Origin: an uncultured Chloroflexia bacterium
GTDB lineage: Bacteria > Chloroflexota > Dehalococcoidia > DSTF01 > JACRBR01
DNA: 64,000 nucleotides
Direction of reading: 5' to 3'
Assembly: GCA_963743185.1 (NCBI GenBank)
Contig: CAVUOT010000007.1
Span: 24,869-88,868 of the forward strand
Every line of letters starts with the position of its first letter. Within the stretch, counting starts at the first letter, position 1. A program made the translations under genes and the position numbers. Shown here piece after piece: positions 8,224-61,054 of the stretch. Below the pieces are notes generated by a model that had not been told where the DNA came from, did not search any database, and saw only the letters and a list, made by a program, of their open reading frames with translations.

Positions 8224-8695
8224 GCGGTCCTCCTGACGGAATCCTCGCCGGGCTGCGCGGGGGCGAGGCTGCGGCCGCCGCTTTCGGGATGGAGCGGCGT
8301 CACGTGTGCGCGTGTCGGTGTTTGTTCCACCAAGGCGTTCGCCCGGGACCTTGCGGGGGTCGAGGGAGAAGCGTCTCCGAGCGCCTGCGGGGTTAGCTGC
8401 CGGGTTCGGGCTTCAGAGTGCCCGTCTCGCTTCCGCGAAATTCACCCCTGCCACCGCCCGGTCCCCCGGCGGGTGGCGTCGGTTCCCCCGTTCCGCGCCG
8501 CGATTAAGCGCGGATTCGGCCCTGCTTCGCCTCCCATCCTACGATCGGCGTCAGAGGGTGTCAATTCACGAAGCTGCGTAAACGTCGTCGAAACCCGCAC
8601 GACGCGAAGAGGGAAGCGGATTGGACAAGAATGAGTTGATGCGAGCGCGCTCGCGTTCACTATCACAAAGTGGAAGCGCGATATGATCGCGGGCG

Positions 8696-23307: not shown

Positions 23308-23332
23308 GACGCCACGCTGTCGCGGCGGCGCG

Positions 23333-23665
23333 TCAGCGCGCAGTCGATCGCCACGCGGGCGGTGCGACGCTGCCGTCGGTGGGGCCGGTCGAGAACGTGT
23401 AGCGCGGCGCGGCGGCGTGGACCGACGCGGCAGCGGTCACGGGCACCGGTGGCGAGGCGTCCGGCACCGGCGGCGAGACATCCGTTATGGCTGGCGGTGG
23501 GGGCTCCGGCGCCGGGTCCATCGGACATCGTTGACGCTGCGTGTGGAAGCCGCCGCAGCGGCCGCAGGCCGGCGTGCCGGAACCGAAGCGCGGCTGCCGT
23601 GCCGGCGCGCCGTCCGCGTCCGCGGGGCTGGTCTCGCCTGCCGGCCGAGCCATCTCTTGGTCCAT
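23333..23665 (-). CDS. hypothetical Pro-rich protein with a CxxC...C element; possibly the frameshifted N-terminus of the PrsW gene
   Basis: ORF 23333..23665 (GTPACGRCGGFHTQRQRCPMDPAPEPPPPAI...). It lies directly upstream of and co-directional with 21672..23307, in a different frame. Confidence 0.25.
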   Translation of the reverse strand: MDQEMARPAGETSPADADGAPARQPRFGSGTPACGRCGGFHTQRQRCPMDPAPEPPPPAITDVSPPVPDASPPVPVTAAASVHAAAPRYTFSTGPTDGSVAPPAWRSTAR

Positions 23666-25126: not shown

Positions 25127-26605
25127 GCGCCCTCCCAGAACTTGCCGCTGCCGGCGCGCTTCGCCAGCAGCTCGCGTACTTCGAGCATGGCGGTGTACGT
25201 GGGGACGACGTGCAGCGTTTCGCCCGGGGGCGTCGCGTCGAGCGCGCGCTGGAGGGCAGCAGCGGTGTCGCGCTCGACCGGGACGTCGTCGCCGAAGCCG
25301 GCGTACTTGAGGCGCAGCGCGAGGTCTTCGGCGCGGGCGCCGGCCGCCAGCGTCCAGCCCGTGTGCGGCTGCACGGTCTCGTAGTCGACGTCCCAGATCC
25401 ACGAGATGTCGCGGCCGTCGGCGATGCCGTCGTTGAGGAAGAAGAGGATGCGCAGGCGATCGCGTGCGGGTTCGTCCGCCTGCGGCGGGCGCTGCGAATG
25501 GGCGATCGTGCGCAACACCTGGTTCAGCCCCGCCGGATTCTTGCCGAGCAGCACCCGCACGTCGCGGCCGTCGACGTCGAAGCGCTCCTGCCGCCCGAAT
25601 GCGGCGGAGAAGGCGTCGAGCGCGGACACGATCGCGTCGCGCGGCAGCCCGAGCGCGAGCGCGCCCGCCGCCGCCGCAAGCGCGTTGTACGCGTTGTAGA
25701 GGCCTGCGAGCGGAAGCGTGATCGTGAGCTCGCCGTCCGGCGTCGCGATCGTCAGCGACGTCGCTTCGTCGCCGAGCGCGACGTGCGTGATGCTCACGTG
25801 CGGCGTCGGGGCGCGCGTTTCCGCAGGAGGGGCAGCGCCAGTGGCCGACGTGCCCGTAGAACGTTGCGGTGTAGGCGATCTCCGCGCCGCAGTCGAGGCA
25901 GGTGCGGAAGTCGGACGCGTGGTCGTCGCCGGGGCCGGCGGCGGTGATGTCGTCGACGCCGTAGTAGACGACGCGCGCCGTCGCGTTGCGCCCGAGGTGG
26001 GCGACGGCGGGATCGTCCGCGTTCAAGACGATGGTCGCCGCCGCTCCGCTGTCTGCTGTCTGTTGTCTGCCTTTGCCCGTCTGCTCTCTGCTCTCAGCCC
26101 TCTGCTCTCGCCCAAGCGCCCGCTCCCACGAATGCGCCACGGTGTCGACTTCGCCGTAGCGGTCGAGCTGATCGCGGAAGAGGTTGGTGAAGACGATGAC
26201 GTCGGGGGCGACGGCGCGCGCGATCTCGGGCAGGGTCGCTTCATCGACCTCCAGAATGGCGAGGCGATGCTCGGCGTCGGGGATGGCGCCGGCGAGCGTC
26301 GCTTCTTCGACGAGCATCGCCGCGACGCCGCGCATGAGGTTCGAGCCGCTGCGGTTGTGGAGCGGGCGGAGGCCGGCGGCGGAGGCGATGCGGCTGAGCA
26401 TCAGCGACGTCGTCGTCTTGCCGTTCGTGCCGGTGACGGCGATGACGCCCGCGCCGGCCTGCGCGGTCAGCGCGCGTACGAGGCCCGGATCGATGCGCAG
26501 CGCAACGAGCCCGGCGATCGCGGTGCCGCCGCCGCGGCCGAGCAGGCGCGATGCGGCCGCGGCGGCCTTGCCGGCGGCGATAGCGGCGACGGTGCGAGGG
26601 TTCAT
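25123..26605 (-). CDS. murT: Lipid II isoglutaminyl synthase, Mur-ligase-like subunit MurT; apparent frameshift near 25805
   Basis: ORF 24356..26605 N-terminus carries the P-loop VTGTNGKTTT and the Cys4 ribbon CLDCG...CPSCG. The C-terminal (DUF1727-like) part is ORF 25123..25797. The frames join at a GGGG run (25808-25811); one G fewer restores ...CGNARPTPHVSITHV. Confidence 0.88.
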
Positions 26606-36854: not shown

Positions 36855-38058
36855 TCAGGCGAGGCGGGAGCCGCTGGCTTCTTCGACGATCCGAAGGCCA
36901 AGCTCGATGCCGAGCGGGAGGCAGGCCTCGTCGAAATCGAACTTCGGGTGGTGGTGCGGCGCGCGTGATGCCACGTGCCGTGTTGCCGCCGCCGAGCATG
37001 AAGTAGGCGCCCGGCGCGGCCTCCAGGAAGTACGCCATGTCGTCGCCGCCGGTCGTGCGCGCTTCGCCGACGTGCTCGGGGCCAAGGAACGCGGACGCGA
37101 CGCCCGCGACGAGCGCGGCGCACGCGGCGTCGTTCACCACGGCCGGCAGTGTGGACGTATCGAACTGGTATCCGGCGCCGAACGCATCCGTGATGCCGCG
37201 CAGGATCTCCTCGATGCGCGTGAGCGCACGCTTCAGCACGTGCGCGTCGAAGGTGCGGATCGTGCCCGACATCATGACCTCGTTCGGGATGATGTTGCCG
37301 CGATCGCCGCCCTGGACGCGGCCGATCGTGAAGACGGCTGTGTGCTCGGGATCGACGGAGCGGCTCACAACCGTCTGCAGCGCGACGATCGCGTGCGCGG
37401 CGACGACGATCGTGTCGACGGTCTGGTGCGGCGCCGACGCGTGTCCGCCGCGGCCGAAGATCTTGATCCGAAAGTGCGTCGACGTCGCGAAGATGGGGCC
37501 GGGGGCGACGCGCACCTGGCCCACCTGCAGGGGCGCCCAGATGTGCAGACCGAAGACACGGTCGACCTTCGGCGCGTTCATCACGCCGTCCGCGATCATG
37601 CGCTGGGCGCCGCCGACGTGCTCCTCGGCGGGCTGGAAGGCGAAGCGCACGGTGCCCGCCAGCGACTCGCGCGACCGCTGCAGCACCGCCGCCATGGCGA
37701 GCGCGATCGCGACGTGGCCGTCGTGGCCGCAGGCGTGCATCGCCTTCTCGCGCGAGGCGAACGGCAGCCCCGTTTCCTCTAAGAGCGGCAGGCCGTCGAT
37801 GTCGGCGCGCCACAGCAGGTTGGGCCCGGGCTTCGCGCCGCGAACGATGCCGGTCGCGCCGGTGTCAGCGCTGGCGGCCACGCCGTCCAGGCCGAGCGCG
37901 CGCATCCGGTCGAGGATCACGCCCTGCGTGCGGCGCTCTTCGGTGGAAAGCTCCGCGTGCTCGTGCAGGTCGCGGCGGACAGCGACGGCATCATCGGTGA
38001 GTGCCTGAACGGCCGGGCGGATGTCTGGAGCGGTCATCGGAGCAAGAGTACCTTCCAT
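36855..38058 (-). CDS. M20D family amidohydrolase (N-acyl-amino acid amidohydrolase-like); apparent frameshift near 36960
   Basis: ORF 36826..38058. MHACGHDGH, FQPAEE and GRGGHASAPH motifs. The C-terminus APHHHPKFDFDEACLPLGIELGLRIVEEA lies in the ORF 36855..37085 frame. An alternative start at ATG 38037 has a better SD. Confidence 0.85.
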
Positions 38059-38104
38059 CGATCGAGCGATCGAGCAGCGTGCTGACGTGAGGAGCCCGGC
38101 GAGG

Positions 38105-39191
38105 TCACACGCGGTCGCCGGGCATCACCTTCGCCCCCGGCTCGAGCGCGTGCCCTTCCTCCACCTCGGCTCCGTTGCCGAGCACGGCGTCCGTGACCGT
38201 CGCGCGGTCGCCGACACCGGCATACGCCGCAATGATGCTGGCCGTGACGCGCGCGCCGGCGCCGATGCGCGCCTCCTCCCAGATGATGCTCGCCTCGATC
38301 GTCGCGCCGGCGCCGACGATGGTGTCGTGGCCGATCACGGTGGGGCCGGTGATGCGCGTTCCCGCGCCGATCGTGACGCCGTGTCCGATCAGCACGTGTC
38401 CGTCGAACTCGACGTCGTCCGCTACGGACGCATCGTCGCCGAGCGCGACTTCCGCGTCGAGATCGCCCATCGTGCGGTCGAGCAGAAGGCGCGTGGCGAT
38501 CATGTAGCGTTCGGGCGAACCGACGTCGACCCACAGATCCTCCTCGAAGCCCTGGACGCGCAGGCCGTCGGCGATGATGCCGGGGAAGAGCACGCGCTCG
38601 GAGAAGCCGTCGCGCACGGCGGTCTCGTCGTCGGGGATGCGGTCGAGTACGTCTGGCTCCCAGAGCCACGTGCCGCGCGTTGATCAGGTTGCTGGGCTCT
38701 TCACCCTGCGGCGGCTTCTCGACGAAGTGGCGGATGCGGAGATCTTCGTCGACCGCGACGACGCCGAAGTGCCACGGGTCGTCGACGGCGGCGAGCGAGA
38801 TGCTCAGCGTCGCGCCGGTGCGGCGGTGGCGTTCGACCATGGCGGTGAGGTCGACGTTCGTGAGAATGTCGCCGTTGCAGACGACGAGCGTTCCCGATGC
38901 GCCGGCAAAGCGCGCGGCTTCCTTGACGGCGCGGCCGGAGCCGAGCGGCCGGTCCTCGTAGCTGTAGCGCAGGCGCACGCCGAGCGTAGAGCCGTCGCCG
39001 AAATGCTCCTCGACCTCGCGCATCCCCTGCGAGCAGGCGAGCACGATGTCCTGCACGCCGTGCTGCCTGAGGTTCAGCAGGCGGTATTCGAGCAGCGGTC
39101 GGTTGAGCAGTGGCACAAGCTCTTTGCGCCGGGCGTAGGTGAGCGGGCGCAGCCGCGTGCCGGCGCCGCCCGCGAGGATGACAGCAAACAT
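38105..39191 (-). CDS. NDP-sugar pyrophosphorylase (mannose-1-phosphate guanylyltransferase-like); apparent frameshift near 38675
   Basis: Starts at ATG 39191 (MFAVILAGGAGTRLRPLTYARRKELVPLL). The C-terminal left-handed beta-helix part is ORF 38105..38617. The implied junction is ...SNLINAGTWLWEPDVLDRIPDDE.... Confidence 0.85.
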
Positions 39192-39223
39192 GGGGGCAGG
39201 GTAGCGAGCGCGCCCGCGAGGCG

Positions 39224-39823
39224 TTAGGTCAGCCGTGGCAGCCAGGCGTGCCCCGGGTACAGCGCGCCCACGGCGCCGCGCAGCCATGCTCGCGCGCCTG
39301 CGTCGAGCGCCGGCGCGGCCGCATCGAAGTCCTGTGCGTTCCGCTCCTCCGGTGCGCGCGTCGCCGCCTTGTACAGGAGCGCGATCTCCGGTGCGATGAT
39401 CGGTATGCCCTCGGTGCTCACCGCGCCGAACCGTTCGAGCGGCAACGCGATCGATGCGTCGCGCCGGAACAGCCATTCGCCGTCGCAGCTGTCCTCCAGG
39501 AACACCTCGAATGCCCAGGCCGCATCTGCGTCACGCCGTACCCAGAACTGCCAACGCGGAGCGACGAGCCAGTCGCCCGCCGCCCACGGCGTCAGCTCGC
39601 CATCGTGCGCGACGTGCACGTCCCAGGGCGCGAGATGCTCTTGCAGGCGCTGCTGATCGCCCCGAAGTACCGCAACGTCGATGTCGCCGTGCTCGCGCGT
39701 CTGGCGCCCGAGGAACAGATCGATCGCCCAGCCGCCTGCGATCCACCAAGGCGCGCCAAAGCCATCGAACAGCGTCCGCACGCCCTCCGGCGAGAGCGCG
39801 TCCCACCGATATGGTTCAGGCAT
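39224..39823 (-). CDS. ANT(2'')/AadB-like nucleotidyltransferase family protein
   Basis: ORF 39224..39823. WWIAGGWAIDLFLGRQTREHGDIDV parallels WIGGGWAIDARLGRVTRKHDDIDL of AadB as I recall it. The substrate is unknown. Confidence 0.65.
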   Translation of the reverse strand: MPEPYRWDALSPEGVRTLFDGFGAPWWIAGGWAIDLFLGRQTREHGDIDVAVLRGDQQRLQEHLAPWDVHVAHDGELTPWAAGDWLVAPRWQFWVRRDADAAWAFEVFLEDSCDGEWLFRRDASIALPLERFGAVSTEGIPIIAPEIALLYKAATRAPEERNAQDFDAAAPALDAGARAWLRGAVGALYPGHAWLPRLT

Positions 39824-42842: not shown

Positions 42843-44094
42843 TTGGCGTATACACACGAAGCGCAGGGCTGCCACGTGAAACTCGAGACCTGGGAGAAGA
42901 ACCTCTACGCCGTCTGGGTGTCGCAGTTCCTGGCGTTGATGGGCGCGAACCTGGTCTTTCCGTTCATCCCGTTCTTCGTCAAAGACCTGGGCGTGAAGAG
43001 CGATTCCGACGCGGCGCTCTGGTCGGGCGTGCTCGCGACGGCGACGGGCGCGATGCTCTTCATCTCGTCGCCGCTGTGGGGATCGCTCGCGGACCGCTTC
43101 GGGCGCAAGAGCATGCTGCTGCGCGCCTACGCCGGCGCGACCGTGACGATCACGGCGCAGGCGATCGTGCAGAGCGTGTGGCAATTGCTGATCCTGCGCG
43201 CGCTGCAGGGTGTGTTCGTCGGCACCATCGCGGCCGCGGCGGCGCTGATCGCCGGCGGCACGCCGCCGAAGCGGATGGCGTACGCGCTCGGGCTCATCCA
43301 GATGGCCGTCTTCACGTCGCAGACGATCGGCCCGGTCGTCGGCGGCCTGATGTCGGGCGTGGTCGGCTTCCGGGCGACGTTCGCCGCGGGCGGGCTGATG
43401 TACATCGCGTCATTCGTGGTGTGCCTCGTCTTCGTGAAGGAGGAGTTCCACCGCCCGGAGGCCAGCGAGCGCGTGTCGTACGCCGAGAACCTGCGCGCGG
43501 TGATGCGCGTGCCATCGATGCTGCTGCTGATCACCGTGATGTTCCTCGTCAGCTCCGCGGCGGTGTTCGTGCGGCCGGTCCTGCCGCTGCTCGTCGAGTC
43601 GTTCACGGACTCGGACGTCGAGGCGAAATCGGGCTTCGCCTTCGCGGCGATCGCGATGACGAGCGCCATCGCCGCCGTCGTCTCGGGCCGGCTCGCGGTG
43701 CGCACCGGCTACCGCAACGCGCTGATCGTCGGCGACGCTGGGCGCCGGCGTCGCGTACGCGACGGTGGGGGCGGCGAACGCGCTGTGGCCGCTGCTGGTG
43801 ATGATGGCGGCGGTCGGCGTCTTCAGCGGCGCGATGATCCCGATGGTGAACGCGCTGATCGGCGCCAGCGCGCCGGACGGCAAGCACGGCTCGGCGTTCG
43901 GACTGGTCGGCAGCGCGCAGGCGCTGAGCTTCGCCGTGGCGCCGCTGCTGGGCGGGCTGACGGCGCAGCAGCTCGGCATCCACGCCGGCTTCCCGATCAT
44001 CGGCGCGATGCTCGTCTTCGTGTCGGCGCTGGTGTGGCTGACGGTGCGCGAGCCGGAATCGCTGCTGTTCGAGGATACGGCGCCGGCGGGGTGA
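42843..44094 (+). CDS. MFS transporter; apparent frameshift near 43738
   Basis: ORF 42843..44720 N-terminus has WGSLADRFGRKSML (MFS motif A) and 8 TM helices. It continues in ORF 43765..44094 (GAANALWPLLVMMAAVGVFSG...). GTG 42876 is an alternative start. Confidence 0.85.
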
Positions 44095-45524: not shown

Positions 45525-46764
45525 CTACCCGCCCCACCGCCGGAACACCAGCGTCGCGTTCTGCCCGCCCATCCCGAACGAGTTGCTCAGCACGACGTCC
45601 ACCTGCGCTTTGCGCGCGGTGTGCGGCACGTAGTCCAGGTCGCACTCCGGGTCGGGCGTGTCGAGGTTGATCGTCGGCGGGATGATGTTGTCGCGGATCG
45701 CCAGCACCGACGCGACGGCCTCGAGGCCGCCCGCGGCCGCGGCGGAGTGGCCGGTCATCGACTTGATGCTGCTCGCGGGCACGCGGTACGCCGCGTCGCC
45801 GAACGCGAGCTTGATCGCCGCGGTCTCCGTCTTGTCGTTGTACGGCGTGCCGGTGCCGTGCGCGTTCAGCCACGACACGTCGCCGCCGCTGATACCGGCC
45901 GACTTCAGCGCGCGGATCATCGAGAGCGACTGCCCTTCGGTATCCGGCGCGGCGTCGTCCACGGCGTCGAACGACCAGCCCTGGCCGATGTACTCGGCGA
46001 GGATCGTCGCGCCGCGTCCCTGCGCGTGTTCGAGCGACTCGAGCACGAGCACGCCCGCGCCCTCGCCCAGCACGAAGCCGTCGCGGTGCAGGTCGAACGG
46101 CCGCGACGCCTTCTGCGGCGTGTCGTTGTAGCCCTTCGACAGCGCGCCCATCAGCCCCATCGTCGCGACGGCGACGGGCGTGATGATCGCTTCGGTGCCG
46201 CCGGAGAGCAGGATGTCGGCGGCGCCGCTGCGGATCATGCTCCAGGCGTGGCCCAGCGCGTCGGTGGCGGAGGCGCAGGCGCTGTTGACGGACGAGCTCG
46301 GCCCGCGCAGGCCCAGCTCGCGGCCGACGCGCCCGGCGGCCATGTGCTGGCCCCAGCGCGGGATGATCAGCGGGTCGACGCGGTTCGGCCCGCGCTCGTC
46401 GATGATCGTCTGCTGGCGGCCCATCTCGAAGGCGCCGCCGGTGCTGGCCATGATGACGCCGGTCTCGGTGGCGGTGTGGCGGTCCATCTCGATCTTCGCC
46501 GAGACGAGCGCTTCCTTCGCGGCCTTGAGCGCGATCTGGGCGAAGCGTCCGGAGCGGCGCGCGGCGCGATGGTCCATCACCTCGGCGGGATCGAAGCCCT
46601 TGATCTCGGCGGCGACGCGCACCGAATGACGTCGACGCGTCGAAGTGCGTGATCGGCCCGATGCCGCTCTTGCCGGCGAGCAGGCTCTGCCAGAACGTCT
46701 CGGCGTCGTTGCCGACGGGCGTAATGGCGCCGACGCCGGTGATCACGACTCTACGCAGTTCCAC
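45525..46764 (-). CDS. fabF: Beta-ketoacyl-ACP synthase II; apparent frameshift near 46625
   Basis: GTG 46764 ([22 protein letters not shown] 45445..47019 frame), then ORF 45525..46622 ([10 protein letters not shown] active-site Cys, [26 protein letters not shown]). Confidence 0.9.
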
Positions 46765-47107
46765 GCGGGGCTCCTTCGGCTGGTGTTGCGGTCGCTTGTT
46801 GCTGCTTGCTGATGTCAGTGTAACAGCGCTCGATCGCGGACCCACAGCCGACCCGCCCCGGGCGCATGTCCCGATCGAGCATCGGCGCGCCGGCGAATCT
46901 GGCACCGCGCGAAATACGCGCGCCGCGCCCGTTAACATCTCCGCTTCCCTTAGGCGCGAACGCTCGACGCGTTCCGCATCGCGCGCGCCTGCGCGTGCGG
47001 GTTTCGCCCATCCCAACACGCGGCCTCAGGCCGACATCATCACTGGCGCGTTCGCGCCGGGGACGCAACGGCACGCACGCGGGTGTGATGCGGCGAGGAG
47101 GGCTGCC

Positions 47108-48157
47108 ATGCAGGGACGCACGTTCGACGCACGCTGGGCGCTCGCTCTGCCCGCGATCGCCATCGCGGCCGCCGTGCTCATCGTCCTCAGCCGCGCCGGC
47201 GCCGGCGAGCCCCGCCCCGCGAGCGCCGTCGCCGACCCAACGCGGGTTTCGCGGACGCTCGGCGCGCGGGAGTTCCGCGCACCGGCCGCAGCGCCGACGG
47301 CGACGCTCGCGGAGTCGCTTCGGGCCGCCGACATCCTCATCAAGGCCGGCAAGATGGCGCCCCCGCCGACGCTCGCCGAGTCGTGGTTGGCGGGCGCCGC
47401 GCTGATCAAGGCGGGCGTGATTCCAGCACCGACGCCGACGCTCGGCGAGACGTGGCTGGCTGTCGATGCGATGATCAAGGCCGGCGTGCTCCCGACGCCG
47501 CCATGGATGCTGAACGTGGCGCCGACGCCGACCCTGCGTGAGACGCTCGAGGCGGCCGTCGTGCTCGTGAAGGCCGGAGCCATGCCGCCGCCGCCGTCGC
47601 TCGCCGCCGATCAGCAGGCGCAGGTCGCGCCGCCTGCGTCGCTGCCCGCGACGAGCACGCCCGTACCGCCGACATCGACGCCGCTTCCGCCGACGAAGAC
47701 GCCGACCGTCGTCGCGAAGACCGCGACCGCCGCCGCGTCCCGCTCCGGCTGGTACGACGACGCCTACACGGCGCAGGTGTTCAGCCTCGTGAACCAGCGG
47801 CGTCAGGCCGCCGGTCTGCCGCCGCTCGCCGTCGAGCCGCGCCTCGCGAACTCCGCGGCGACGTACGCGAAGGTGCTCGCCGACAGCAACACGTTCTCGC
47901 ACACCGGCCCCGACGGCAGCACGCTCGTCACGCGCGACGAGGCGGCGGGCTTCCCGTTCACGGTGCAGATCGGCGAAGTGCTCGCATGGGGCTCGAGCGG
48001 CTGGACGCCGGGCGAGATCGTGCAGGCATGGATGGACAGCCCGCCCCACCGCGAAGAGATCATGAGCCCCGTCTACACGCGGGCGGGCGCCGGCTGCTAC
48101 TTCACGAACAACGGCACGCTGATGGTGCGCTGCGCGATGGAACTCGCGGCGGGCTGA
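47108..48157 (+). CDS. Secreted CAP/SCP (YkwD-like) domain protein with an internal 4x tandem repeat
   Basis: Internal ATG 47108 of ORF 46649..48157, with signal-anchor ALALPAIAIAAAVLIVL. Four ~20-25 aa repeats PTL(A/G/R)E(S/T)(L/W)L...(I/V)KAG.(M/I/L)P occupy 47293-47600. The C-terminal CAP domain reads VFSLVNQRRQAAGLPPL...FSHTGPDGS...WMDSPPHREEIM. Confidence 0.8.
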   Translation: MQGRTFDARWALALPAIAIAAAVLIVLSRAGAGEPRPASAVADPTRVSRTLGAREFRAPAAAPTATLAESLRAADILIKAGKMAPPPTLAESWLAGAALIKAGVIPAPTPTLGETWLAVDAMIKAGVLPTPPWMLNVAPTPTLRETLEAAVVLVKAGAMPPPPSLAADQQAQVAPPASLPATSTPVPPTSTPLPPTKTPTVVAKTATAAASRSGWYDDAYTAQVFSLVNQRRQAAGLPPLAVEPRLANSAATYAKVLADSNTFSHTGPDGSTLVTRDEAAGFPFTVQIGEVLAWGSSGWTPGEIVQAWMDSPPHREEIMSPVYTRAGAGCYFTNNGTLMVRCAMELAAG

Positions 48158-50154: not shown

Positions 50155-51404
50155 ATGGCCGCAGGTTCTCGACGACTTGTGCCGGCAGGGGTGTTCGCCG
50201 GGCTGGTGCTGCTGTCCCTCGCGTGGTCGACGGCGGCGGCGGCGCTCCTGCCGCTGCCGGACGGCCCGAACGACTTCAACTCACCGGGGTTCGTCGTGCG
50301 GCACGCATGGGTGAAGTTCGCGCTCATAGCGACGCGTCCGGTGCGCGGCGAGATGAGCCGGCAGGACGAAGACGCCAAGGTCGCGCGCTTCTTCGCGCTG
50401 AACGCACTGATCGCGCAGCAGGAGCGGATCGCCGGCGATCCCCAGAGCGCCGCGAGCGTGGCCGCGGACGCCCGCGCGGCGGAGTCGGCGATGCGGGCGG
50501 AGCGGCGCGACCTCAAGAACACCGTCGCGCTGATCCTCGACGGGCGCCTGACTCGCGTGATCAAGGAGGCCGGCCTGACGCGGCACATCGGCGGCGACGT
50601 CGTGTGGCCGCCGGTGAACATCGAGTTCCAGGAGCCGCCAGCGGTGCTCGTGAAATCGCCGCGGTCGGAGATCAAGAAGGAGAGCGAATCGCTGCTGCAG
50701 GGCGACCTGCCGATCGCGCGCGTGCAGCAGATCGAGACGAACGCGGAGCGCGACGGGAAGACGTCGGCGCTGGTGGTGGAGATCGGCGGCATCGCGATGT
50801 ATCCGGCCATCATCCCGTTCGACGAGGACTACCACTACATCCTCCAGGACATCGCGCACGAGTGGACGCACCACTACCTCTACTTCGCGCCGCTGGGACG
50901 CGCGTACTTCGGCAGCGCGAAGCTGACCACGCTCAACGAGACGGTGGCGAACATGGTCGGGCGGGAGCTGGGCGACCGGCTGTTCCAGGAGTACCCGCTG
51001 GAGCAGCCGCCGTCCTACGTGACCATCGCGCCGATCGCGGGCCGCGCGGCCGCGGCGGTCGAGGCCGCGCCGGGCATCGATTTCACGAAGGAGATGCGCG
51101 ACCTCCGGCGGCAGGTGGAATCGCTGCTCGCGGACGGGAAGATCGATGACGCGGAGCGGGCGATGGAGGAGAAGCGCCAGTTCCTGGCGCGTGAACGGGT
51201 ACTACATCCGGCGCCTGAACCAGGCGTACTTCGCCTTCCACGGGTCGTACGCGGATTCGGCGGGATCGATCGACCCGATCGGGCCCAAGCTGGACGATCT
51301 GAGGCGAAAGGTCTGCGTCGCTGCGCGAATTCGTGTCCGTGGCGCGGCGGTTCAAGTCGGAGGGCGATCTCGACCAGGCGCTCGCGGCGAAAGCGGCTCA
51401 GTAG
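50155..51404 (+). CDS. Membrane-anchored putative zinc metallopeptidase (HExxH), family unassigned; 2 apparent frameshifts near 51190 and 51308
   Basis: ORF 50155..51447 has the signal-anchor [20 protein letters not shown] and the HExxH motif in [10 protein letters not shown]. The protein-like reading continues as [40 protein letters not shown] (51146 frame). It then reads [30 protein letters not shown] (stop at 51402-51404). Confidence 0.6.
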
Positions 51405-52432
51405 CTGGCGACGAGCGTTTCTTCTTCGGTCGGCAGGCTGCGCTTGATGACGTCGAGGTACTCGAGCGCGACACCGGCGCCGATCGCGACGCAGTCGAGC
51501 GGGTTCTCCGCGATGTGGATGGGGATGCCCGTCTCCTGCGCGAGCAGCACGTCGATGTGACGCAGCAGCGCGCCGCCGCCGGTGAGAACGATGCCGCGGT
51601 CGATGACGTCGGACGCAAGCTCCGGCGGTGTGCGCTCGAGTACGCTGCGCACGACCGACACGATGGTGGCGAGTGAGTCCTGGATCGCCGCCGTGACGTC
51701 GCTCGATGTGACGGTGAGCGTCTTCGGCAGGCCGCTGATCTGGTCGCGCCCGCGGATGTCCATCTTCAGCTCGTCGTCACCCAGCGGCACTGCGGCGCCG
51801 ATCGTCCTCTTCATCTCTTCGGCGGTGCGATCGCCGATGACGAGGTTATACCGGCGCTTGACGTAGGCGACGATCGCGTCGTCGAGCCGATCGCCGGCGA
51901 TGCGGACGCTCTCGCTGACGACGATGCCGTACATGGAGATGACCGCGGCCTCGGTGCGGCCGCCGCCGATGTCGACGACCATGTTGCCGCTCGGGGCGTT
52001 CACCGGGATACGGGCGCCGATGGCGGCAGCGAGCGGCTCCGGCACGAGGTGCACCGGCCGGCGCCCGCCGGCCTGCTCGGCGGCGTCGCGGACGGCGCGC
52101 TGTTCGACGCTCGTCACGCCGGCGGGGATGCAGACCATGACTTCGGGCTTGATCAGGTTGAAGCGGCCCACGACCTTCGTGATGAAGTAGCGGAGCATCG
52201 CTTCGGTGATCAGGTAGTCGGCGATGACGCCGTCGCGCATCGGCCGGATGACGGAGATGCTGCCCGGGACGCGGCCCATCATCTCCTGCGCCTCGCGCCC
52301 GACGGCCATCACCGTGTTGTCGCGGTTGGCCAGCGCCACGACGGATGGCTCGTTGACGACGATGCCGCGGCCTTTGACGTAGACCAGCACGTTCGCCGTG
52401 CCGAGGTCGATGCCGATACGCTTCGGAAGCAT
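51398..52432 (-). CDS. mreB: Rod shape-determining protein MreB
   Basis: ORF 51398..52432. [23 protein letters not shown] and LTGGGALL actin-fold motifs. Confidence 0.96.
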
Positions 52433-53784: not shown

Positions 53785-53964
53785 CGTGTCCAGAATACAG
53801 GCTGCGACGCTGCGATGTGGGGATGGCTGGCGCGGAGGGCACCCAGCGCGTGGTACGAACGCGAGGCGTTAAGGCCGGGCGGCATTCCGGCGGCAGAAGC
53901 GCCGCTTTTCGGCGCGCGGGCCGCGATCCAGCGGAAATATCCGAGCCGCTGTCAAGCTGGGGGC

Positions 53965-53992
53965 TTGACAACATAACAAACCGGATTAAGAT
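53965..53992 (+). promoter_or_regulatory. Sigma70-like promoter (TTGACA - 16 nt - TAAGAT)
   Basis: cTTGACAacataacaaaccggatTAAGATag. A perfect -35 and a TAnnnT -10. It faces the surface-protein cluster and lies ~810 nt upstream of its first start codon. Confidence 0.5.
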
Positions 53993-54804
53993 AGTGGTTA
54001 GTCGTTAAAAACCAATGTGATCGACACGGGAACGGCTCGGTGAAGAGCAGTAGTCACTGCTTGATTCCGTGCCCGGTTCCGCCGCTGAAGGCACGTCCCT
54101 CCCCCGCCGTGCCTGCATTGGTTCGTACCGCCGGGCGGCGAAGCAACGATTGGTGGGGCATGATGCGCCACGACAACGACCTGCAACGAAGTCTGGACGA
54201 CACGGCAAGCGCACCACGATGTGTACGCCCCGTACCGCTTCGCGATGTCTCGCGGCGTCCAATCAGCCCCATGCACGATCGGGCGGACCGGCCCACTACG
54301 AAGGGGCCGTACGGCCGCTGGACGGGCACGGCATATTGGTTAATGTCAATACGCTCCCGGTGGGAGGAAACACCGCAAGGATGCAGCGAGCAACGCAGGG
54401 AATGTAAGTAGGGATTCAGGGGACTGCGTTACATCCTCATCCTGGCGCGCCGCTCGAGCGGCTCCCGCCCGGTGGCATCAGTCGATCATCGTGGTTTCAT
54501 CAGCGTCCGGCCGCCAGGCCCGGATACCGCGCGCAGGCCCGGACGCTATGTAACGACCCCGCAGAGATCATGAGACCGCAGGAAAGGAGGCACGGCCTAT
54601 TGAACCATCACCGCAGATAGTAGAGCCCTGACAGGCGGTGACCTGCCAGGGCCCTGAGGACGAAGGCCGGCCGAAGCCCAACCTGCGCCGCAATTCAGTT
54701 TGACACGGTTGGACATGCCTCGGCCAGCGAATGAAACGCCTGCCCTGATGCCCCGGCGGAGGGCAGGCACACGCTTCGTTGCAACGAACGAAAGAAGGAC
54801 AACC

Positions 54805-56124
54805 GTGAAGCTACATTCCTATCGAGGGCTCCTCGTACTGGGGGCGCTGATGGCGATCGCGCTCATCGCGACCTTCAGCGTCAGCGGTACCGCCCGCGCC
54901 GATACCGTGCCGACCAAGGGTGTGATCGGCGTCAGCGGAACCGGACCCGTCATCGAGTGCAAGTGGGAACTGCCCGACATGAACTCGAGTGCCGCGGGCA
55001 TCCAGTACACCAAGGCGCCTGGCCATCTGCACGACGACGACATGACCATCGCTCCCGGACCACCGGTGCCTTGCCACGGCCCGGGCGACGCGGTGCCCAC
55101 GAAGCCGACGCAGGCAAACGGCGTCCACAACATGATCCAGGTGGCGCCGAACTTCGAGAATCTGCCCGAACAGCGCCAGATCCAGAACTGGATGGCGGTC
55201 GACGACCCGGGCACGGTCAGCGACACCTTCTGGATCGTCTGGGAGCCCTGCACGACGGTGACGAACCCGCTCTGCGGCCTCGCGCCAGCACCGGCCCCGA
55301 ACCTCGTGAAGAAGCTGCAGGTACATGGCACGCAGCTAGCACTGGCGGAGTGCCAGGCGCTCGCGGGCACGAGCACGACGGACGGCTCGATGATCGAGGC
55401 CGCGGTCCACACGGGCCAGGTCACGGCCGACTCGTTCACCGACCTGAACAAGGGCATGATCTCGCTCTGCAACCAGAACGTGAAGGGCCTCTACCACGCG
55501 GAATGGCCGCTGAGCAAAGACCAGCCCTGCGGTGAGTACCGCATCGACGCCACCGCCGTCTCCGTCGGCGGTGCCGTGTCGACGCTCACGAACTACATCG
55601 ACATCCTCTGCACGTTCCAGCTGAAGATCGACTTCGGCGGCGACCCGACCGTGCCGTGTGCGGGTGGCATCACCTGGCCGGCGCTGGTTCCGGGAAGCAC
55701 GAGCACGGTCGGTGGTGACCTGATCTTCGCGCCGGGGTGCGACACGCACCCGACGGTGAAGAACGTCGGCAACAGCGGCATGGGCCTGAAGCTCACCTAC
55801 AGCGACCTGGTGGGCGCCACGTTCGGGAAGCACATCTACACGTTCGACGCCTGCTACGGCCGCGCGCCGGACGCGACGCTGAAGTGCTTCCCCTCGATCA
55901 TCAACCAGCCGGCGCAGACGACGCCGACCTCCCCTGAGATCGACACCCAGGTGGACTTCGGCACGTTGCCTGCGCAGGTGCTCTGTGCGAACGAGCTGGG
56001 CAAGCTCGACCCGTCGGTGCACCCGCAGGCCGGACTGCCTGCGGACACCTACAACGGTACGGCGACGCTTGTTGGCTACGCCGTGCCGGGCGAGTGCCTC
56101 GGCAACAAGCACGTTGGCCCATAG
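54805..56124 (+). CDS. Secreted cysteine-rich surface protein, unassigned family (paralog 1)
   Basis: ORF 54700..56124. The start was chosen at GTG 54805 by homology with paralog 2 (same GAAAGA(A/G)G(G/A)ACAACC-GTG context). Signal peptide LLVLGALMAIALIATFSVSGTARA|DT. There are 16 Cys. The C-terminal half looks like an Ig/CARDB-like sandwich (IDFGG...PTVKNVGNSGMGLKLTYS). Confidence 0.85.
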   Translation: MKLHSYRGLLVLGALMAIALIATFSVSGTARADTVPTKGVIGVSGTGPVIECKWELPDMNSSAAGIQYTKAPGHLHDDDMTIAPGPPVPCHGPGDAVPTKPTQANGVHNMIQVAPNFENLPEQRQIQNWMAVDDPGTVSDTFWIVWEPCTTVTNPLCGLAPAPAPNLVKKLQVHGTQLALAECQALAGTSTTDGSMIEAAVHTGQVTADSFTDLNKGMISLCNQNVKGLYHAEWPLSKDQPCGEYRIDATAVSVGGAVSTLTNYIDILCTFQLKIDFGGDPTVPCAGGITWPALVPGSTSTVGGDLIFAPGCDTHPTVKNVGNSGMGLKLTYSDLVGATFGKHIYTFDACYGRAPDATLKCFPSIINQPAQTTPTSPEIDTQVDFGTLPAQVLCANELGKLDPSVHPQAGLPADTYNGTATLVGYAVPGECLGNKHVGP

Positions 56125-56173
56125 CTGACCTCGTGCTGCCTGAGGAAAGACGGCACGACTCATGGAACGTCCG

Positions 56174-56201
56174 GGGTGGGGGGCTTGCGGGCCCCCCACC
56201 C
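56174..56201 (+). terminator. GC-rich hairpin between paralog 1 and paralog 2
   Basis: GGGTGGGGGGC-ttgcgg-GCCCCCCACCC, an 11-bp perfect stem. With no U-tract it could act as an attenuator, stabiliser or terminator. Confidence 0.4.
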
Positions 56202-56321
56202 GAACCACCGGGGCAGGAACCCCGAGGAGGTTGCGAAGCAGAGGACGGGAACGCCGAAGCATAGTGCTCGAGAGCGGCACCGCCTTTCCCGCAGCGGTAC
56301 ACGCACGAAAGAGAGACAACC

Positions 56322-57668
56322 GTGAAGCTACATTCTTACAGAGGGCTCCTCGTGCTGGTGGCGCTGATGGCGATCGCGCTCGTCGCGACCTTCAGCGTCG
56401 GCGGTACCGTCCGCGCTGACACCGTGCCGACGAGCGGCGTTATCAGCGCAAACGGAACGGGTCCGGTCATCGAGTGCAAGTGGGAACTGCCCGACATGGA
56501 CTCCTACACGCCGGGCATCCAGTACACCCGGCCCGCCCCTGCGCCCGGGCACCTCCACGACGACGATCTGGGCGTCGTCCCGGACAGGGACAACGACCCG
56601 GCGAACGGCACCCAGGTGCCGTGCCACGGACCGGGCGACACGCCGCCCACGAATCCGACGATGCCGCAGGGCGTCCGGCACATGGTCCAGGTGGCGCCGA
56701 ACTTCGAGAATCTGCCCGAGCAGCGCCAGATCCAGAACTGGATGGCAGTCGATGACCCGGGCACCGTCAGCGACACCTTCTGGATCGTCTGGGAGCCCTG
56801 CACGGCGGTGACGAACCCGCTCTGCGGCGCCACCTACCCGGGCCTCGCGAAGAAGCTCCAGGTGCACGGCACGATGCTAACACTGGCGGAGTGCCAGGCG
56901 CTCGCGGGCACGAGCACGACGGACGGCGCGATGGTTGAGGCCGCGATCGACACCGACCAGGTCACGGCGGACTCGTTCACCGACCTGAACAAGGGCATGA
57001 TCTCGCTCTGCAACGAGAACGTGAAGGGCCTCTACCACGCGGAATGGCCGCTGAGCAAAGACCAGCCGTGCGGTGAGTACCGCATCGACGCCACCGCCGT
57101 TTCCATCGGCGGCGCCACGACGACGCTCACGAACTACATCGACATCATCTGCACGTTCCAGCTGAAGATCGACTTCGGCGGCGACTCGAGCGTGCCCTGC
57201 CCCGGTGGCATCACCTTCCCGACACTGGTTCCGGGCGGCTCCAGCACCGTCGGCGGTGACCTGCTCTTCCTGCCGGGGTGCGACACGCACCCGACGGTGA
57301 AGAACGTCGGCAACAGCGGCATGGGCCTGAAGCTCACCTACGGCGACCTCGTGGGCGCCACGTTCGGGAAGCACATCTACACGTTCGACGCCTGCTACGG
57401 CCGGGCGCCGGACGCCACCCTGAAGTGCTTCAACCCCATCATCAACCAGCCGGCGCAGACGACGCCGACCTCCCCCGAGATCGACACCGAAGTGGACTTC
57501 GGCACGTTGCCTGCGCAGGTGCTCTGTGCGAACGAGCTGGGCAAGCTCGACCCGTCGGTGCACCCGCAGGCCGGACTGCCCGCGGACACCTACAACGGTA
57601 CGGCGACGCTTGTTGGTTACGCCGTACCGGGCGAGTGCTTCGGCAACAAGCACGGGGAAACTCAGTGA
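56322..57668 (+). CDS. Secreted cysteine-rich surface protein, unassigned family (paralog 2)
   Basis: ORF 56322..57668 (GTG start). By eye about 85-90% identical to paralog 1 at the protein level, with an 11-residue longer variable loop after the CKWELPDM motif. Confidence 0.88.
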   Translation: MKLHSYRGLLVLVALMAIALVATFSVGGTVRADTVPTSGVISANGTGPVIECKWELPDMDSYTPGIQYTRPAPAPGHLHDDDLGVVPDRDNDPANGTQVPCHGPGDTPPTNPTMPQGVRHMVQVAPNFENLPEQRQIQNWMAVDDPGTVSDTFWIVWEPCTAVTNPLCGATYPGLAKKLQVHGTMLTLAECQALAGTSTTDGAMVEAAIDTDQVTADSFTDLNKGMISLCNENVKGLYHAEWPLSKDQPCGEYRIDATAVSIGGATTTLTNYIDIICTFQLKIDFGGDSSVPCPGGITFPTLVPGGSSTVGGDLLFLPGCDTHPTVKNVGNSGMGLKLTYGDLVGATFGKHIYTFDACYGRAPDATLKCFNPIINQPAQTTPTSPEIDTEVDFGTLPAQVLCANELGKLDPSVHPQAGLPADTYNGTATLVGYAVPGECFGNKHGETQ

Positions 57669-57711
57669 TCGGCGTCTCGACCGTCTGAACGGCGGCGGGA
57701 TGCACGTACGG

Positions 57712-57737
57712 GGCGGGAGGCTCGCGAGCCTTCCGCC
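57712..57737 (+). terminator. GC-rich hairpin after paralog 2
   Basis: GGCGGGAGGCTCG/CGAGCCTTCCGCC, which has one G-U pair and no U-tract. Confidence 0.3.
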
Positions 57738-57773
57738 ACGAAACATCGGGGCGTGAACCTCGGGGAGGTGGCG

Positions 57774-59142
57774 ATGGAGAAGACGGGAATGCCGAGGATG
57801 CTGCTCACGCGCGGCGTCGCCATCTGCCTGGTCGCAGCGGTGGTGTTCGCCGCCGCCTGTAGTGGCGGCGGTCCACGCCCGACGCCGACGGCGACGACCG
57901 CCGTCGAGACGCCACAGGCCACCAACACGCCGGTCTACGGGACGCCGATCGCGCCGCCACCCACCCCGTTGCCCGTCCCGCAGGGCACCGAAGACTCGTC
58001 CGAAGGCATCGGCGTCTACCCGTCCCTGCTTGGCTTCCCCGACGCTCTGCGCGGGCGCGAGTACTTCGGTACCGTCGGCATCCAGAACGGCGGGCCGCGT
58101 GACCACACGTACCGTTTCGAGACCACCGGCGACACCGCGCCCTGGCTCACGTTCGTGACTCCGGACCGCACGACGCCGCTTACGCAAGTCGACGTGCCGC
58201 CGCGTAACAGCACGCAGGTCATCGTGAAGGCCGTGGTGCCGGCGGGAATTCCCAACGGCGATTACGCAGGCACCATCCGCGTCCTCACCACCACCAGCGA
58301 CCGCGCCGGCGCGGAGAGCTCGGGCGCGGGCGTGACGATCGGCGCCGAGGTGAGCGTGAACCTCGCCGTCACCGGCACGCAGAGGATCGAAGGCCAGTTC
58401 GTCGACGCGGGCGCGTCCGACGTCGAATCGGGCCACCCGCTGCGCATCCAGTCGCAGCTCGCCAACACGGGCAACGTGCAGGTCAACCCGTCGATCGACG
58501 TCGACATTCTGGGCGGCTTCGGCAACGCCGTCGATCACGTGACGTTTGCCGTTGACCCTGTCTACCCGAGCGATAGGAAGCAGATCACGAACGAGTGGCC
58601 GACGGAAGGCCGGCCGCATCGGCGAATACGTCGGCCGCGTCTCCGTCAAGTTCGGCGACCTTGATCTGGGCACGAAGGAAGTGCGCTTCAACATCGTGCC
58701 CGTGGGCACCTACTCGCGGCGCGGCGAGCTGCAAGACGTACACCTGACGAACGCGCCGCGCGTGGGCGATCTCGCGAAACTCGTCGCCGTCTTCAAGAAC
58801 ACGGGCCAGATCGAAACGAAGGGGAAGTTCGTGGGCGAGCTCTACATCGGCGACCGGCTGATCGCCCCGCTCACCAGCGAGGAGCAGCTCTTGCTTCCGG
58901 GCGGCACCGGCGATCTCGAAATCCTGACGCGTATCACCGAGAACGCCACGTACACCATCAAAGGCAAGATCAACTACGAAGGACGTGAGACCGACACCCA
59001 GCAGTTCACATTCCGCGTCGGCGAGGAGGGCGGCAGATCGCCGCTGACGTGGGCGCTACTCATCGCCGGCGGCGCGGCGGTCGTGATCGTACTGGGCGCA
59101 GGCGGCTGGATGGTCCGCCGGAATAGGGCAGCTGCTCGGTGA
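57774..59142 (+). CDS. Putative lipoprotein with repeated CARDB/NEW3-like Ig domains and a C-terminal TM anchor (COG1470-like); apparent frameshift near 58615
   Basis: ATG 57774 is preceded by GGGGAGG. Lipobox-like VVFAAAC|SGG, then a Pro/Thr linker. The domains carry patterns such as VPAGIPNGDYAGTIRV and NTGNVQVNP (ORF 57753..58664). The reading continues in ORF 58546..59142 (GEYVGRVSVKFGDLDLGTKEVRF...FKNTGQIETKG...). It ends with TM WALLIAGGAAVVIVLGAGGWMV followed by RRNR. Confidence 0.75.
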
Positions 59143-59229
59143 GCTGACAGGCAAGGACAGCCGCCGTACACGCGCCGCCCGGCGCGAGGCGGACGGGGCG
59201 TCTCGTCGAGCCGGAAACGAAACACACCT

Positions 59230-61054
59230 ATGGCGCTGCGACTTTCCGGCCTGATGCTCGTCGGCGCGCTGCTCGCCGCCACCGCAATCGCGTTGGCGAC
59301 GGCGAGCACCCCGCCGCGCGCCCGTGCTGCGGCCGGCGGCTGGACCGCCGAATACTTCAACAACATGACGCTCACTGGCGCTCCCGTCCTCGTGCGTGAG
59401 GAAGGCCCGTACCTCGACCTCTACCGCGATGGCACCGAGCCGGCGCCCGGCGTCAACATCGAGCACTTCAGCGCCCGCTGGAACCGCACCGACGACTACA
59501 CCGCCGGCACGTACCGCATCACCGCCGCCGGCGACGACGGCATCCGCGTCTACGTCGACGGTGCGCCTCGTGATCGACGCCTGGTTCGATCAGCAGATCA
59601 CGACCTACATCGCCGACGTCACGCTGAGCGCCGGCACGCACAGCGTGCGCGTCGAGTACTACAACAACCTCGATAAGGTCGCCGCGAGCGTCTGGATCGA
59701 ACCCGTGGACATCGTGGCCGAATCAACCGCCGTCCCCACCGCGACGAATCTTCCGGCCGAGGCAACAGGCACCGCGCCCGCCCTCACCCCCACCGCGCCG
59801 GCGATCACCGGTACTGCGGCGGCGATGAGCACCGCCGGCGCGACGCGAACCGCCGCCGCCACGCGCACGGCCGCCGCCTCGCCGACCATCGAGCGCACAG
59901 CGACGATAGAGGGCGCGATCTCGCCGCTCGCGTCGCCGACGCCCGCCGCAACGTCGACCCCGGGTACGCCGCCGCGCATCGAATGCCTGTGGGCGCTGCC
60001 GGACATGAACTCCGCCGAGGCAGGCATCCAGTACACACCCAGCCCGCCCGCGGATATCCACGACGACGACATGGCGGTCGTCCCGGACGCGGATAACAAC
60101 GCGAGCAATGGCGTGCAGGCGCCGTGCGCCGGGCCTCCCGCGTCGTTGCCGTCGCAGCCGGACGGCGCGCGCCATCTCATGCAGGTCGTACCCAACTTCG
60201 AGGACCTACCCGAACAGCGCCGCATCCAGCTCTGGATGGCCGCGGACGCTCCGGCGGCCGGCGATGAGATCGCCGCGTTCTGGTACGTGTACTACCCGGC
60301 CGGCTCGACAGTCGGTGGTGTTGCTTCGACGCTCGTACCCGCCACGGACTGCGCCGCGGACGGCGGCGCGACGGGTCCGGCCGGCTCGATGTTCGAGGCG
60401 GCGGTGCACTCGGGCCAGATAGCGCCGGCTGCGGTCAGCGATCCCCTGCTCAGCCTGACCGCTCGCTGCCAGCAGGGCGCGAAACGCCTCTTCCACGGCG
60501 AGTTTCAGCTCAGCAAGGACCAGCCCTGCGGAGAATACGGCATCACCGCTGTCGCCGTAACGACGTCTGGGGCGACGGCCACGCTGTCCGCGACGTTCGA
60601 TGTGCTGTGCGTCATCGCACTCAGAGTCGACTTCAGCATCATCGATTGGGGCACGCTCACGCCCGGACAGCCGAAGACCATCGACGGCGATACGGCCTTC
60701 TCGCCGCCGGCCGATGCGGCGCCCACGGTGAAGAACGCCGGCAACGACGGCATGGGGCTGAAGCTCAGCTTCTCAACGCTGACAGGCGCGTCGTCCGGCC
60801 AGACCATCAACGAGTTTCATGGCTGCTTCGGCCGCGGCGCGCTTACGTTGCAGTGCATCAACCCGATCGTCGCAGGCTCGCTCGCCGCCTTCGACACCGA
60901 TCCGGCACGAACCCTGTGCGCGAATGAAACCGGCAGGCTCGACCTCGGCATCCACCCGCCGCTCACCGCGGCCGCCGACCGGTACGGCGGCATGCTGACG
61001 CTGATCGGCTACCCCATTCCCGGTCGATGCGCGGGGAACCGTCACGTGCCCTAG
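59230..61054 (+). CDS. PA14 domain fused to the cysteine-rich surface domain (paralog 3); apparent frameshift near 59565
   Basis: ORF 59230..59676 has the signal peptide LMLVGALLAATAIALATA and a PA14-like GWTAEYFNNMTLTGAPV...FSARWNRT...GTYRITAAGDDGIRVYVDG. It continues in ORF 59396..61054 (RLVIDAWFDQQ...AGTHSVRVEYYN). A Thr/Ala/Pro linker follows. The C-terminal domain is homologous to paralogs 1 and 2 (IECLWALPDMNS..GIQYT..HDDDM..NFEDLPEQRRIQLWMA...LSKDQPCGEYGI...PTVKNAGNDGMGLKLSFS). Confidence 0.8.

Follow-up and report, generated by a model that had tools for sequence, protein, structure and literature searches.

WxL gene clusters comprise a small protein of the WxL type, a large one with N-terminal binding domains and a WxLIP composed of two immunoglobulin (Ig)-like domains and a transmembrane (TM) helix, and in their commonest form one WxLIP is combined with two WxL proteins (PMC10599100). 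In TasA-like, AbpX and Tafi loci, DUF5305 and signal peptidase I (SPase I) are encoded by accessory genes that stand alongside tip adhesins and membrane anchors (bioRxiv 10.64898/2026.01.04.697558; PMC11821415). The four-gene cluster described here occupies positions 54805-61054 of a 64,000-nucleotide stretch of DNA from an uncultured Dehalococcoidia-class Chloroflexota bacterium (contig CAVUOT010000007.1; the whole stretch is called the window below) and is a conserved three-part module of a known general kind. Its list of parts is like that of the WxL or Csc clusters: secreted proteins consisting of a shared domain only, a larger protein that carries an N-terminal binding domain in addition, and an anchor made of Ig-like sandwiches and a TM helix. 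Judged by its sequence, the shared domain of about 400 amino acids (aa) is a new, unannotated protein domain family.

The four coding regions are co-directional on the + strand, as the original prediction had stated, and stand out by their strong third-position GC in a plot of GC by codon position; the G+C content of the window is 65-73%. Small secreted paralog 1 (54805-56124, +) starts with GTG and encodes 439 aa with a third-position GC of 0.89, its Sec signal peptide (ARA↓D) being followed by the shared domain of about 400 aa. Small secreted paralog 2 (56322-57668, +) has 448 aa and is 86% identical to paralog 1. Both lengths and both export signals had been foreseen for this tandem pair and were borne out. 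The membrane anchor (57774-59142, +) has 455 aa after removal of an extra base at 58617, and the large paralog, a fusion of PA14 domain, stalk and shared domain (59230-61054, +), has 607 aa after removal of an extra C at 59566. Thus, the two small paralogs are intact, whereas the anchor is not a single open reading frame (ORF) and the PA14 gene is also split, contrary to what had been assumed of them. The signal peptides of the three paralogs end in ARA↓D, VRA↓D and ARA↓A and are of the ordinary Sec, AXA type; all four products are predicted to be exported.

The last gene contributes a third copy of the shared domain in its C-terminal ~385 aa, which share 45% identity with paralog 1. All motif blocks quoted for the three copies recur in their alignment, namely C(K/L)W(E/A)LPDM, GIQYT, HDDD, NFE(N/D)LPEQR(Q/R)IQ.WMA, LSKDQPCGEY, PTVKN.GN.GMGLKL and LCANE.G.LD. 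An isopeptide bond was considered on account of invariant K, N and D residues, but VKNxGN is more simply explained as a CARDB-like strand motif. The number of cysteines had been overestimated at about 16, since 14 are present in each of the small paralogs and 10 in the third copy; that most of them align in the third paralog was correct, as 10 do. Eight cysteines are near-invariant over 41 homologs, a further two occur frequently and another four are restricted to particular clades, and we infer 4 to 7 disulfides in the small paralogs.

The original prediction had been unable to place the shared domain in a family known to it, and this description stands. The window proteins and 41 family members, scanned singly, gave no Pfam match for the domain, NCBIfam gave none either, and a sequence-profile search of the PDB returned one chance match only (E 0.32). 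When all cluster proteins together with 41 paralog and 21 anchor family members were compared with Pfam and NCBIfam, PA14 was accompanied only by sub-threshold Ig-like matches (MG2, DUF5685, CARDB, FixG_C) that were inconsistent between members. A word-indexed search of 5.8 billion proteins yielded 52 relatives, all of them unnamed or 'hypothetical', and a hidden Markov model (HMM) search of 1.84 billion representatives collected 868 clusters, defined at 50% identity, with E<=1e-3, of which 217 reached E<=1e-30. Within this family the domain is fused to PA14 (P0019, P0031, P0038, P0041, P0084), to VWA (P0022), to seven cadherin repeats and fn3 (P0079) or to a PD40 propeller (P0098), and the fusion partners are all extracellular interaction modules. 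Protein P0011 ends in an Asp-rich domain (residues 418-562), which is matched by a stand-alone neighbour, L003_336, with 56% identity (E 3e-45). Secreted proteins with a weak CARDB match and such an Asp-rich C-terminal domain (...DMFDNDAN..WTFG..GDDLHVE...DVNxDGVFD) adjoin paralog clusters at L003 17609-18619 and at the loci L011, L018, L019 and L020.

An AlphaFold2 (AF2) model of residues 32-448 of paralog 2, computed with the family alignment, reached a pLDDT of 92.1 and a pTM of 0.88. It comprises an N-terminal segment of ~100 residues with little regular secondary structure and two beta-sandwiches, the first of which holds a helical insert. In a Foldseek search of the PDB the model matched tandem-Ig adhesins and matrix proteins with E-values of 5e-6 to 1e-4, among them AgI/II C-domains, RbmA, CfaE/CfaB, SdrD/ClfA, the HPI S-layer protein and arrestins. 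A search of BFVD gave nothing informative, and TasA was not among the top 50 matches of the model. An assignment to a characterised family by structure was therefore given up, as the PDB and BFVD searches delivered generic tandem-Ig matches only. The paralogs have the two-beta-sandwich architecture in common with the tandem-Ig adhesins of Gram-positive type (AgI/II C-domains, the MSCRAMMs SdrD and ClfA) and with RbmA of V. cholerae; in contrast to these adhesins they lack an LPXTG sorting signal, and neither an isopeptide nor a DEv-IgG signature was seen in them, though no test aimed at one was made.

In the large paralog a PA14 domain (~59329-59704, +) precedes a Thr/Ala/Pro-rich stalk (~59705-59896) and the shared domain (59897-61048), as delimited by Pfam, tblastn and profile HMM. 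The N-terminal frame piece matches PF07691 with E 8.3e-8 and 32.6 bits against a cut-off of 24, and the rest of the domain continues in the next frame. This confirms the view of the last gene as a third paralog preceded by a PA14 domain and a linker. An intact ortholog of 592 aa (P0019) shows the matching architecture and is annotated with PF07691. The N-terminal module thus passes the Pfam threshold for the PA14 domain of adhesins, glycosidases and toxins. What sets it apart from these is the stalk that links it to the new domain; in the assembly, a frameshift also falls within the PA14 part of its gene.

The anchor begins with a signal peptide that ends in a lipobox-like AAAC↓S and continues with a Pro/Thr linker, three Ig-like beta-sandwiches, a TM helix and the basic tail RRNRAAAR. 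Its structure was modelled on an intact ortholog (P0053, 82% identical to the window anchor) and not on the window sequence. In the AF2 model, a signal helix and a Pro/Thr linker without order precede three beta-sandwiches with a pLDDT of about 90 and a terminal TM helix, in agreement with the Ig-repeat anchor with TM helix and basic tail that had been proposed. The accompanying assignment to CARDB/NEW3 is weakly backed by sequence. At E<=1 the window anchor has a Pfam match neither to CARDB (PF07705) nor to NPCBM_assoc (PF10633), and among 21 anchor orthologs Pfam detected weak CARDB in three (best 2e-4), FixG_C in two and NEW3 in one. The cysteine at the end of the signal peptide, on which the proposed lipoprotein nature depends, is kept in 18 of the 21 orthologs and absent from P0055, P0072 and the L003 anchor. 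Relative to the pattern [LVI][ASTVI][GAS]C at the signal-peptide end, the window sequence VFAAAC↓SGG has Ala at -3; several orthologs have a canonical L-A-A-C or L-G-A-C. A lipoprotein with a non-canonical lipobox is plausible, and the anchor is probably tethered by an N-terminal lipid in addition to its C-terminal TM helix. Foldseek matches of the anchor model are Ig-repeat proteins. The best bacterial ones are the E. faecium WxLIP alone and bound to a long WxL protein (9i1y, 9i25; E about 7e-10), with TM-scores of 0.34-0.38 normalised to the target.

On the side of the anchor these matches may relate the cluster to the WxL/Csc systems, and its gene content follows their rule that one or more anchors are combined with two or more domain proteins, of which one is small and another is large and bears N-terminal binding domains. 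The original prediction had noted a Csc/WxL-like layout without the signature motifs, a view that is reinforced by the published definition of the clusters (PMC10599100) and by the anchor matches. In sequence and hosts the systems differ. The shared domain has ~400 aa, two sandwiches and conserved cysteines, whereas WxL domains have 160-190 aa and two Trp-x-Leu motifs; a single near-invariant W-E-L occurs in ECKWELPD, and there is no second Trp-x-Leu motif. In contrast to the WxLIP, which is composed of DUF916, DUF3324 and a TM helix and has two Ig domains, the anchor has three. WxL and Csc clusters belong to Lactobacillales and Bacillales of the Firmicutes, whereas the hosts here are Chloroflexota and Actinomycetota. 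Thus, because membership in the WxL family fails on each aspect of sequence, the cluster is to be seen as an analogue or, at most, as very distantly related through its anchor. Unlike Csc clusters, the region from 53.7 to 61.4 kb of the window holds no CscD-like small LPXTG protein. Two related loci (L004 13292-14158 and L026 4037-4600) have, next after the anchor, a gene whose 288-aa product terminates in LPPSGG, a hydrophobic stretch and RRPRRR; such a terminus resembles a sortase-type sorting signal and would be a counterpart to CscD, the LPXTG protein of Csc clusters. In the literature we found no paper linking Chloroflexota with WxL or Dehalococcoidia with PA14 surface proteins.

The arrangement of the genes is conserved. 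A synteny survey with tblastn and profile HMMs of the paralog and anchor families was based on 27 fetched loci, 20 of which were evaluable and non-redundant. A paralog followed by an adjacent, co-directional anchor was present in 15 of these 20. The hosts are metagenome-assembled genomes (MAGs) of Dehalococcoidia, Anaerolineae and 'Chloroflexia', and two MAGs of Actinomycetota (L021, L025). The suspicion that the gene combination might be absent from relatives, and hence a chance neighbourhood, is thereby removed, as the order is kept in two phyla. At nine loci, including the window, a further paralog stands after the anchor; it is more divergent, and its N-terminal extension varies. Two MAGs have an expanded paralog family that is spread across several contigs. 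The flanks of the cluster in the window are formed by MreB and MurA on one side and by DUF1501 and DUF1800 proteins on the other. Among named relatives, those closest to MurA and to the cluster genes come from Chloroflexota/Dehalococcoidia. At three loci with MurA proteins 89-90% identical (L028, L030, L031), genes for an enoyl-CoA hydratase and a DUF4349 protein lie beside murA-mreB instead of the cluster. As these close relatives lack the cluster beside murA, it is a variable accessory insertion; the cluster is an accessory module.

No genes for sortase, SipW, secretin or pilins were found in the flanks by Pfam or across the 64-kb window by tblastn, so that their absence, as originally noted, holds for the window. 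For SipW it is not general, since one relative has a SipW-type peptidase-DUF5305 gene beside its module. Directly after the module of this locus (L003, GCA_021787985.1, 14173-16879) follow genes for proteins of 129 and 168 aa with SipW-type signal peptides (AYAFTATNTV and FAFTATNTV) and for a 534-aa fusion of an archaeal-type SPase I with DUF5305. The fusion scores 56.6 bits against a threshold of 51.85 for TIGR02228 and 2.6e-14 for PF17231 (DUF5305). The N-terminal domain of the third paralog at L003 resembles the 129-aa protein (34% over 68 aa, E 5e-5 pairwise). The locus was fetched a second time as L010 and counts as one non-redundant locus.

Upstream of the first paralog, the original prediction had pointed to a consensus-like promoter. 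The pattern exists, TTGACA-16-TAAGAT at 53965-53992 (+), with 10 of 12 matches and 813 nucleotides (nt) upstream. It is probably not the promoter of the cluster and was rejected as such, since one such site in the region compares with 0.6 expected from shuffled sequences and since none of the relatives shares the surrounding non-coding DNA (53785-54577). These ~800 bp have 63% GC, a flat codon-position GC profile and no coding signal, and may mark the site at which the accessory cluster was inserted or contain a small RNA that has gone unrecognised. A more credible control region is a conserved non-coding leader of ~120 nt at 54578-54701 (+); in blastn comparisons, conservation upstream of the first paralog was confined to 54576-54816. 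The alignment reveals a Shine-Dalgarno (SD)-like box, GGAAAGGAGG, at 54581-54590, a GC hairpin at 54625-54652, which is also backed by covariation, and a conserved box, GACGAAGGCCGGCCGAAGCCCAACCT, at 54659-54684 (consensus GACGAAGGCYGGCCGAAGCCCAACCU...GCCGCA). An upstream ORF of 4-10 codons, put at 6-10 for the window and initiated by AUU or UUG, possibly begins 7-9 nt after the SD-like box.

The leader is kept even at loci whose proteins are only 40-45% identical. A covariance model of it (R1) reached 88-119 bits exclusively at sites immediately preceding first paralogs, two new metagenome loci among them, and weaker matches at the level of the hairpin were present upstream of the paralog at five more distant loci. 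Compensatory changes affect five of the nine base pairs of the hairpin, a value reached by none of 500 shuffles. The hairpin alone was rejected as a specific marker, as only two of 22 loci from a metagenome scan were linked to a paralog and the rest had at most 28 bits with the leader model. No Rfam match was obtained in the 1-kb upstream region, either at the gathering threshold or at E<=1. The box is identical to the STAB-SD stabiliser of the cryIIIA mRNA. As in Bacillus thuringiensis cryIIIA, GAAAGGAGG lies far upstream of the true start codon and is followed by a stable hairpin; in contrast to STAB-SD, the leader belongs to another phylum, and a short upstream ORF may follow the box. By this analogy, the leader is a candidate for a new cis-acting element of mRNA stability or regulation. 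Two further strong GC stem-loops on the + strand were predicted by RNAfold, one of 12 bp without a T tract in the 197-nt gap between the small paralogs (56173-56201) and one of 11 bp that separates paralog 2 from the anchor (57712-57737).

The interpretation that we favour, with moderate confidence, is that the cluster is an accessory, operon-like module that would build a non-covalent complex for surface display or adhesion in a monoderm-type, Dehalococcoidia-class Chloroflexota. With its Ig domains the anchor would retain small and large paralogs at the cell surface by their shared domain, as the WxLIP holds the WxL domains of small and large WxL proteins; it is by analogy with this pair that we infer a contact between anchor and paralogs. 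The variable distal module, PA14 in this case, would bind an external ligand, most likely a glycan, and the SD-like box, the hairpin of the leader and the intergenic hairpins would set mRNA stability and subunit stoichiometry. The surface complex of the original prediction is thus supported as far as sequence and structure prediction reach: the shared domain has no confident match to a characterised family, and the gene combination recurs in related genomes.

Several observations weigh against this interpretation. Paralogs without an adjacent anchor occur at five loci (L013, L014, L017, L022, L023), and two of the four cluster genes are out of frame in the assembly. The TM-scores of the paralog in the Foldseek search, including those with tandem-Ig adhesins, are only 0.15-0.27, so that its likeness to these proteins is of a generic tandem-Ig kind, architectural rather than family-specific. 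For the anchor, the match to the WxLIP ranks below many eukaryotic Ig-repeat proteins (ciliary, alpha-2-macroglobulin). Moreover, the Pfam signatures of WxL systems are absent: WxL (PF13731) was matched neither by window proteins at E<=1 nor by 41 family members at E<=0.1, and the anchor family has no match to DUF916 or DUF3324 and lacks the NQIDKxxxYFDLK motif.

We tentatively go a step further and consider that the new domain and its TM partner with three Ig domains may represent an unrecognised non-covalent display system, widespread in Chloroflexota and Actinomycetota, convergent on the logic of WxL and WxLIP and equipped with a leader RNA of its own. Soils, aquifers and sediments are rich in Dehalococcoidia-class Chloroflexota, most of which are uncultured, and to our knowledge almost nothing is known about their attachment to surfaces, partners or substrates. 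If the proposal is correct, modular display with interchangeable heads (PA14, VWA, cadherin, propeller) would offer a handle on adhesion and envelope architecture in these bacteria. It would also enlarge the inventory by at least one new domain family, of ~870 clusters and covered by neither Pfam nor NCBIfam, and by a family of partner anchors, and would provide a further case of evolution converging on the WxL/WxLIP complexes known from lactic acid bacteria.

The main rival explanation, rather unlikely in our judgement, is a fibre or pilus, in which the paralogs polymerise, e.g. by donor-strand complementation as in TasA, AbpX or Tafi, the PA14 paralog serves as tip adhesin and the TM protein acts as terminator or anchor like TafF. 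Like the cluster, the TasA, AbpA, AbpX and Tafi systems combine extracellular beta-sandwich subunits with a tip adhesin and a TM anchor. The module at L003 directly precedes SipW-type small subunits and the SPase I-DUF5305 fusion, the N-terminus of its third paralog resembles one of these subunits, related small genes come after the module at L004 and L026, and the pilins CfaE/CfaB are among the Foldseek matches, all of which is compatible with a fibre. However, neither SPase I/DUF5305 nor a small-subunit gene occurs within the 64-kb window, as judged for the peptidase by tblastn with the L003 fusion, and the peptidase is confined to one non-redundant related locus (L003/L010). The paralogs, with ~400 aa, are larger than the ~160-260 aa of TasA, Abp and Tafi subunits and have ordinary signal peptides of the AXA type, and neither the window proteins nor the 41 members have a Pfam match to TasA or camelysin. 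Moreover, AF2 gives a confident and self-complete monomer in which the N-terminal strand occupies its place.

The surface display complex also has to be set against an envelope lattice, in which the small paralogs are abundant, S-layer-like coat subunits held by the anchor and adhesion is secondary. We think this improbable. The tandem duplication of the small paralog would suit such a coat, and so would the GAAAGGAGG box and 5' hairpin of the leader, as expected of very stable, highly expressed mRNAs, and intergenic hairpins that could reduce expression of the downstream anchor. The HPI S-layer protein of Deinococcus is a weak Foldseek match (8cka, E 8.5e-5). A coat of this kind is difficult to reconcile with an accessory cluster that is absent from close relatives at the murA locus and whose copy number and fusion partners vary widely. 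Pfam and NCBIfam revealed no SLH domain or other S-layer signature, and in one lineage (L001/L002/L039) the first paralog is a real pseudogene.

Display by an anchor would be beside the point if the paralogs were secreted enzymes or metal-binding factors, with ECKWELPD and H-DDD catalytic or scavenging a metal or substrate and the anchor merely co-located. The near-invariance of acidic residues (E20, D27, D49, D50) and of His in the shared domain is in line with this idea, and PA14 domains are also present in glycosidases. We nevertheless regard it as very unlikely, since the fold is all-beta and Ig-like without a match to a catalytic domain by profile or structure, the HxHDDD motif shrinks to DDD in some members (P0028, P0039) and the fusion partners are adhesion modules, not enzymes.

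The frameshifts of the cluster could be taken as signs of decay. Guided by an intact 456-aa ortholog, tblastn places the anchor in one frame up to 58616 and in the next from 58618, with the extra base 58617 in CCG-C-ATC. In the PA14 gene the extra C at 59566 lies within the PA14 domain (GCG-C-CTC); across this site the intact ortholog P0019 reads ...VYVDGALVIDAW... A frame-plot screen of the whole window detected several further frame switches within genes. For MurT (24356-26605, -), an MFS transporter (42843-44094, +) and an NTP-transferase/LbH enzyme (38034-39476, -), Pfam confirms that each is a single gene split between frames; in MurT, positions 1-104 of Mur_ligase_M are in one frame and positions 163-198 together with MurT_C in another. 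The gene of a PrsW-like protease (21672-23436, -) is split in a similar manner, as judged by eye. With the two of the cluster this amounts to about six frameshifts in 64 kb, which affect cell-wall genes as well. Since at least four unrelated genes of the same window are frameshifted, a pseudogene reading of the two cluster frameshifts was set aside; they are most likely indel errors of sequencing or assembly and not the result of pseudogenisation. At L009 (12882-13227), in a long-read-derived MAG, the PA14 part of the orthologous large paralog also aligns in two frames, which suggests another assembly indel at a GC-rich site. The case is different for the first paralog of L001, where a 1-nt deletion (9930-9950; ACGCCCGCATCCAG vs ACGCCGGGCATCCAG) takes the signal peptide off the main ORF; this deletion is regarded as real because it is identical in three independent assemblies (L001, L002, L039). 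A decaying or chance neighbourhood of unrelated or pseudogenised genes without joint function, to which the two frameshifted window genes and the truly frameshifted paralog of that lineage might point, is largely refuted and has next to no probability in view of the gene order conserved in 15 of 20 loci, the high protein identities, the coding-like third-position GC and the frameshifts of the MurT, MFS transporter, NTP-transferase and PrsW-like genes, which point to sequencing error.

Three features elsewhere in the window were recorded in passing. A 502-aa protein encoded at 46649-48154 (+), 7 kb upstream of the cluster and without evident link to it, is secreted and carries a CAP (cysteine-rich secretory protein) domain at its C-terminus (E 5e-19). 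The 430-aa ORF at 50155-51447 (+) has an N-terminal hydrophobic segment and an HExxH-like motif, HEWTHH, without belonging to a Pfam family, and may encode a membrane-bound or secreted metallopeptidase that has escaped annotation. Finally, the only Rfam match of the window at the gathering threshold is a c-di-AMP riboswitch (RF00379) at 8367-8520 (-), with 59.8 bits and E 2.3e-11.

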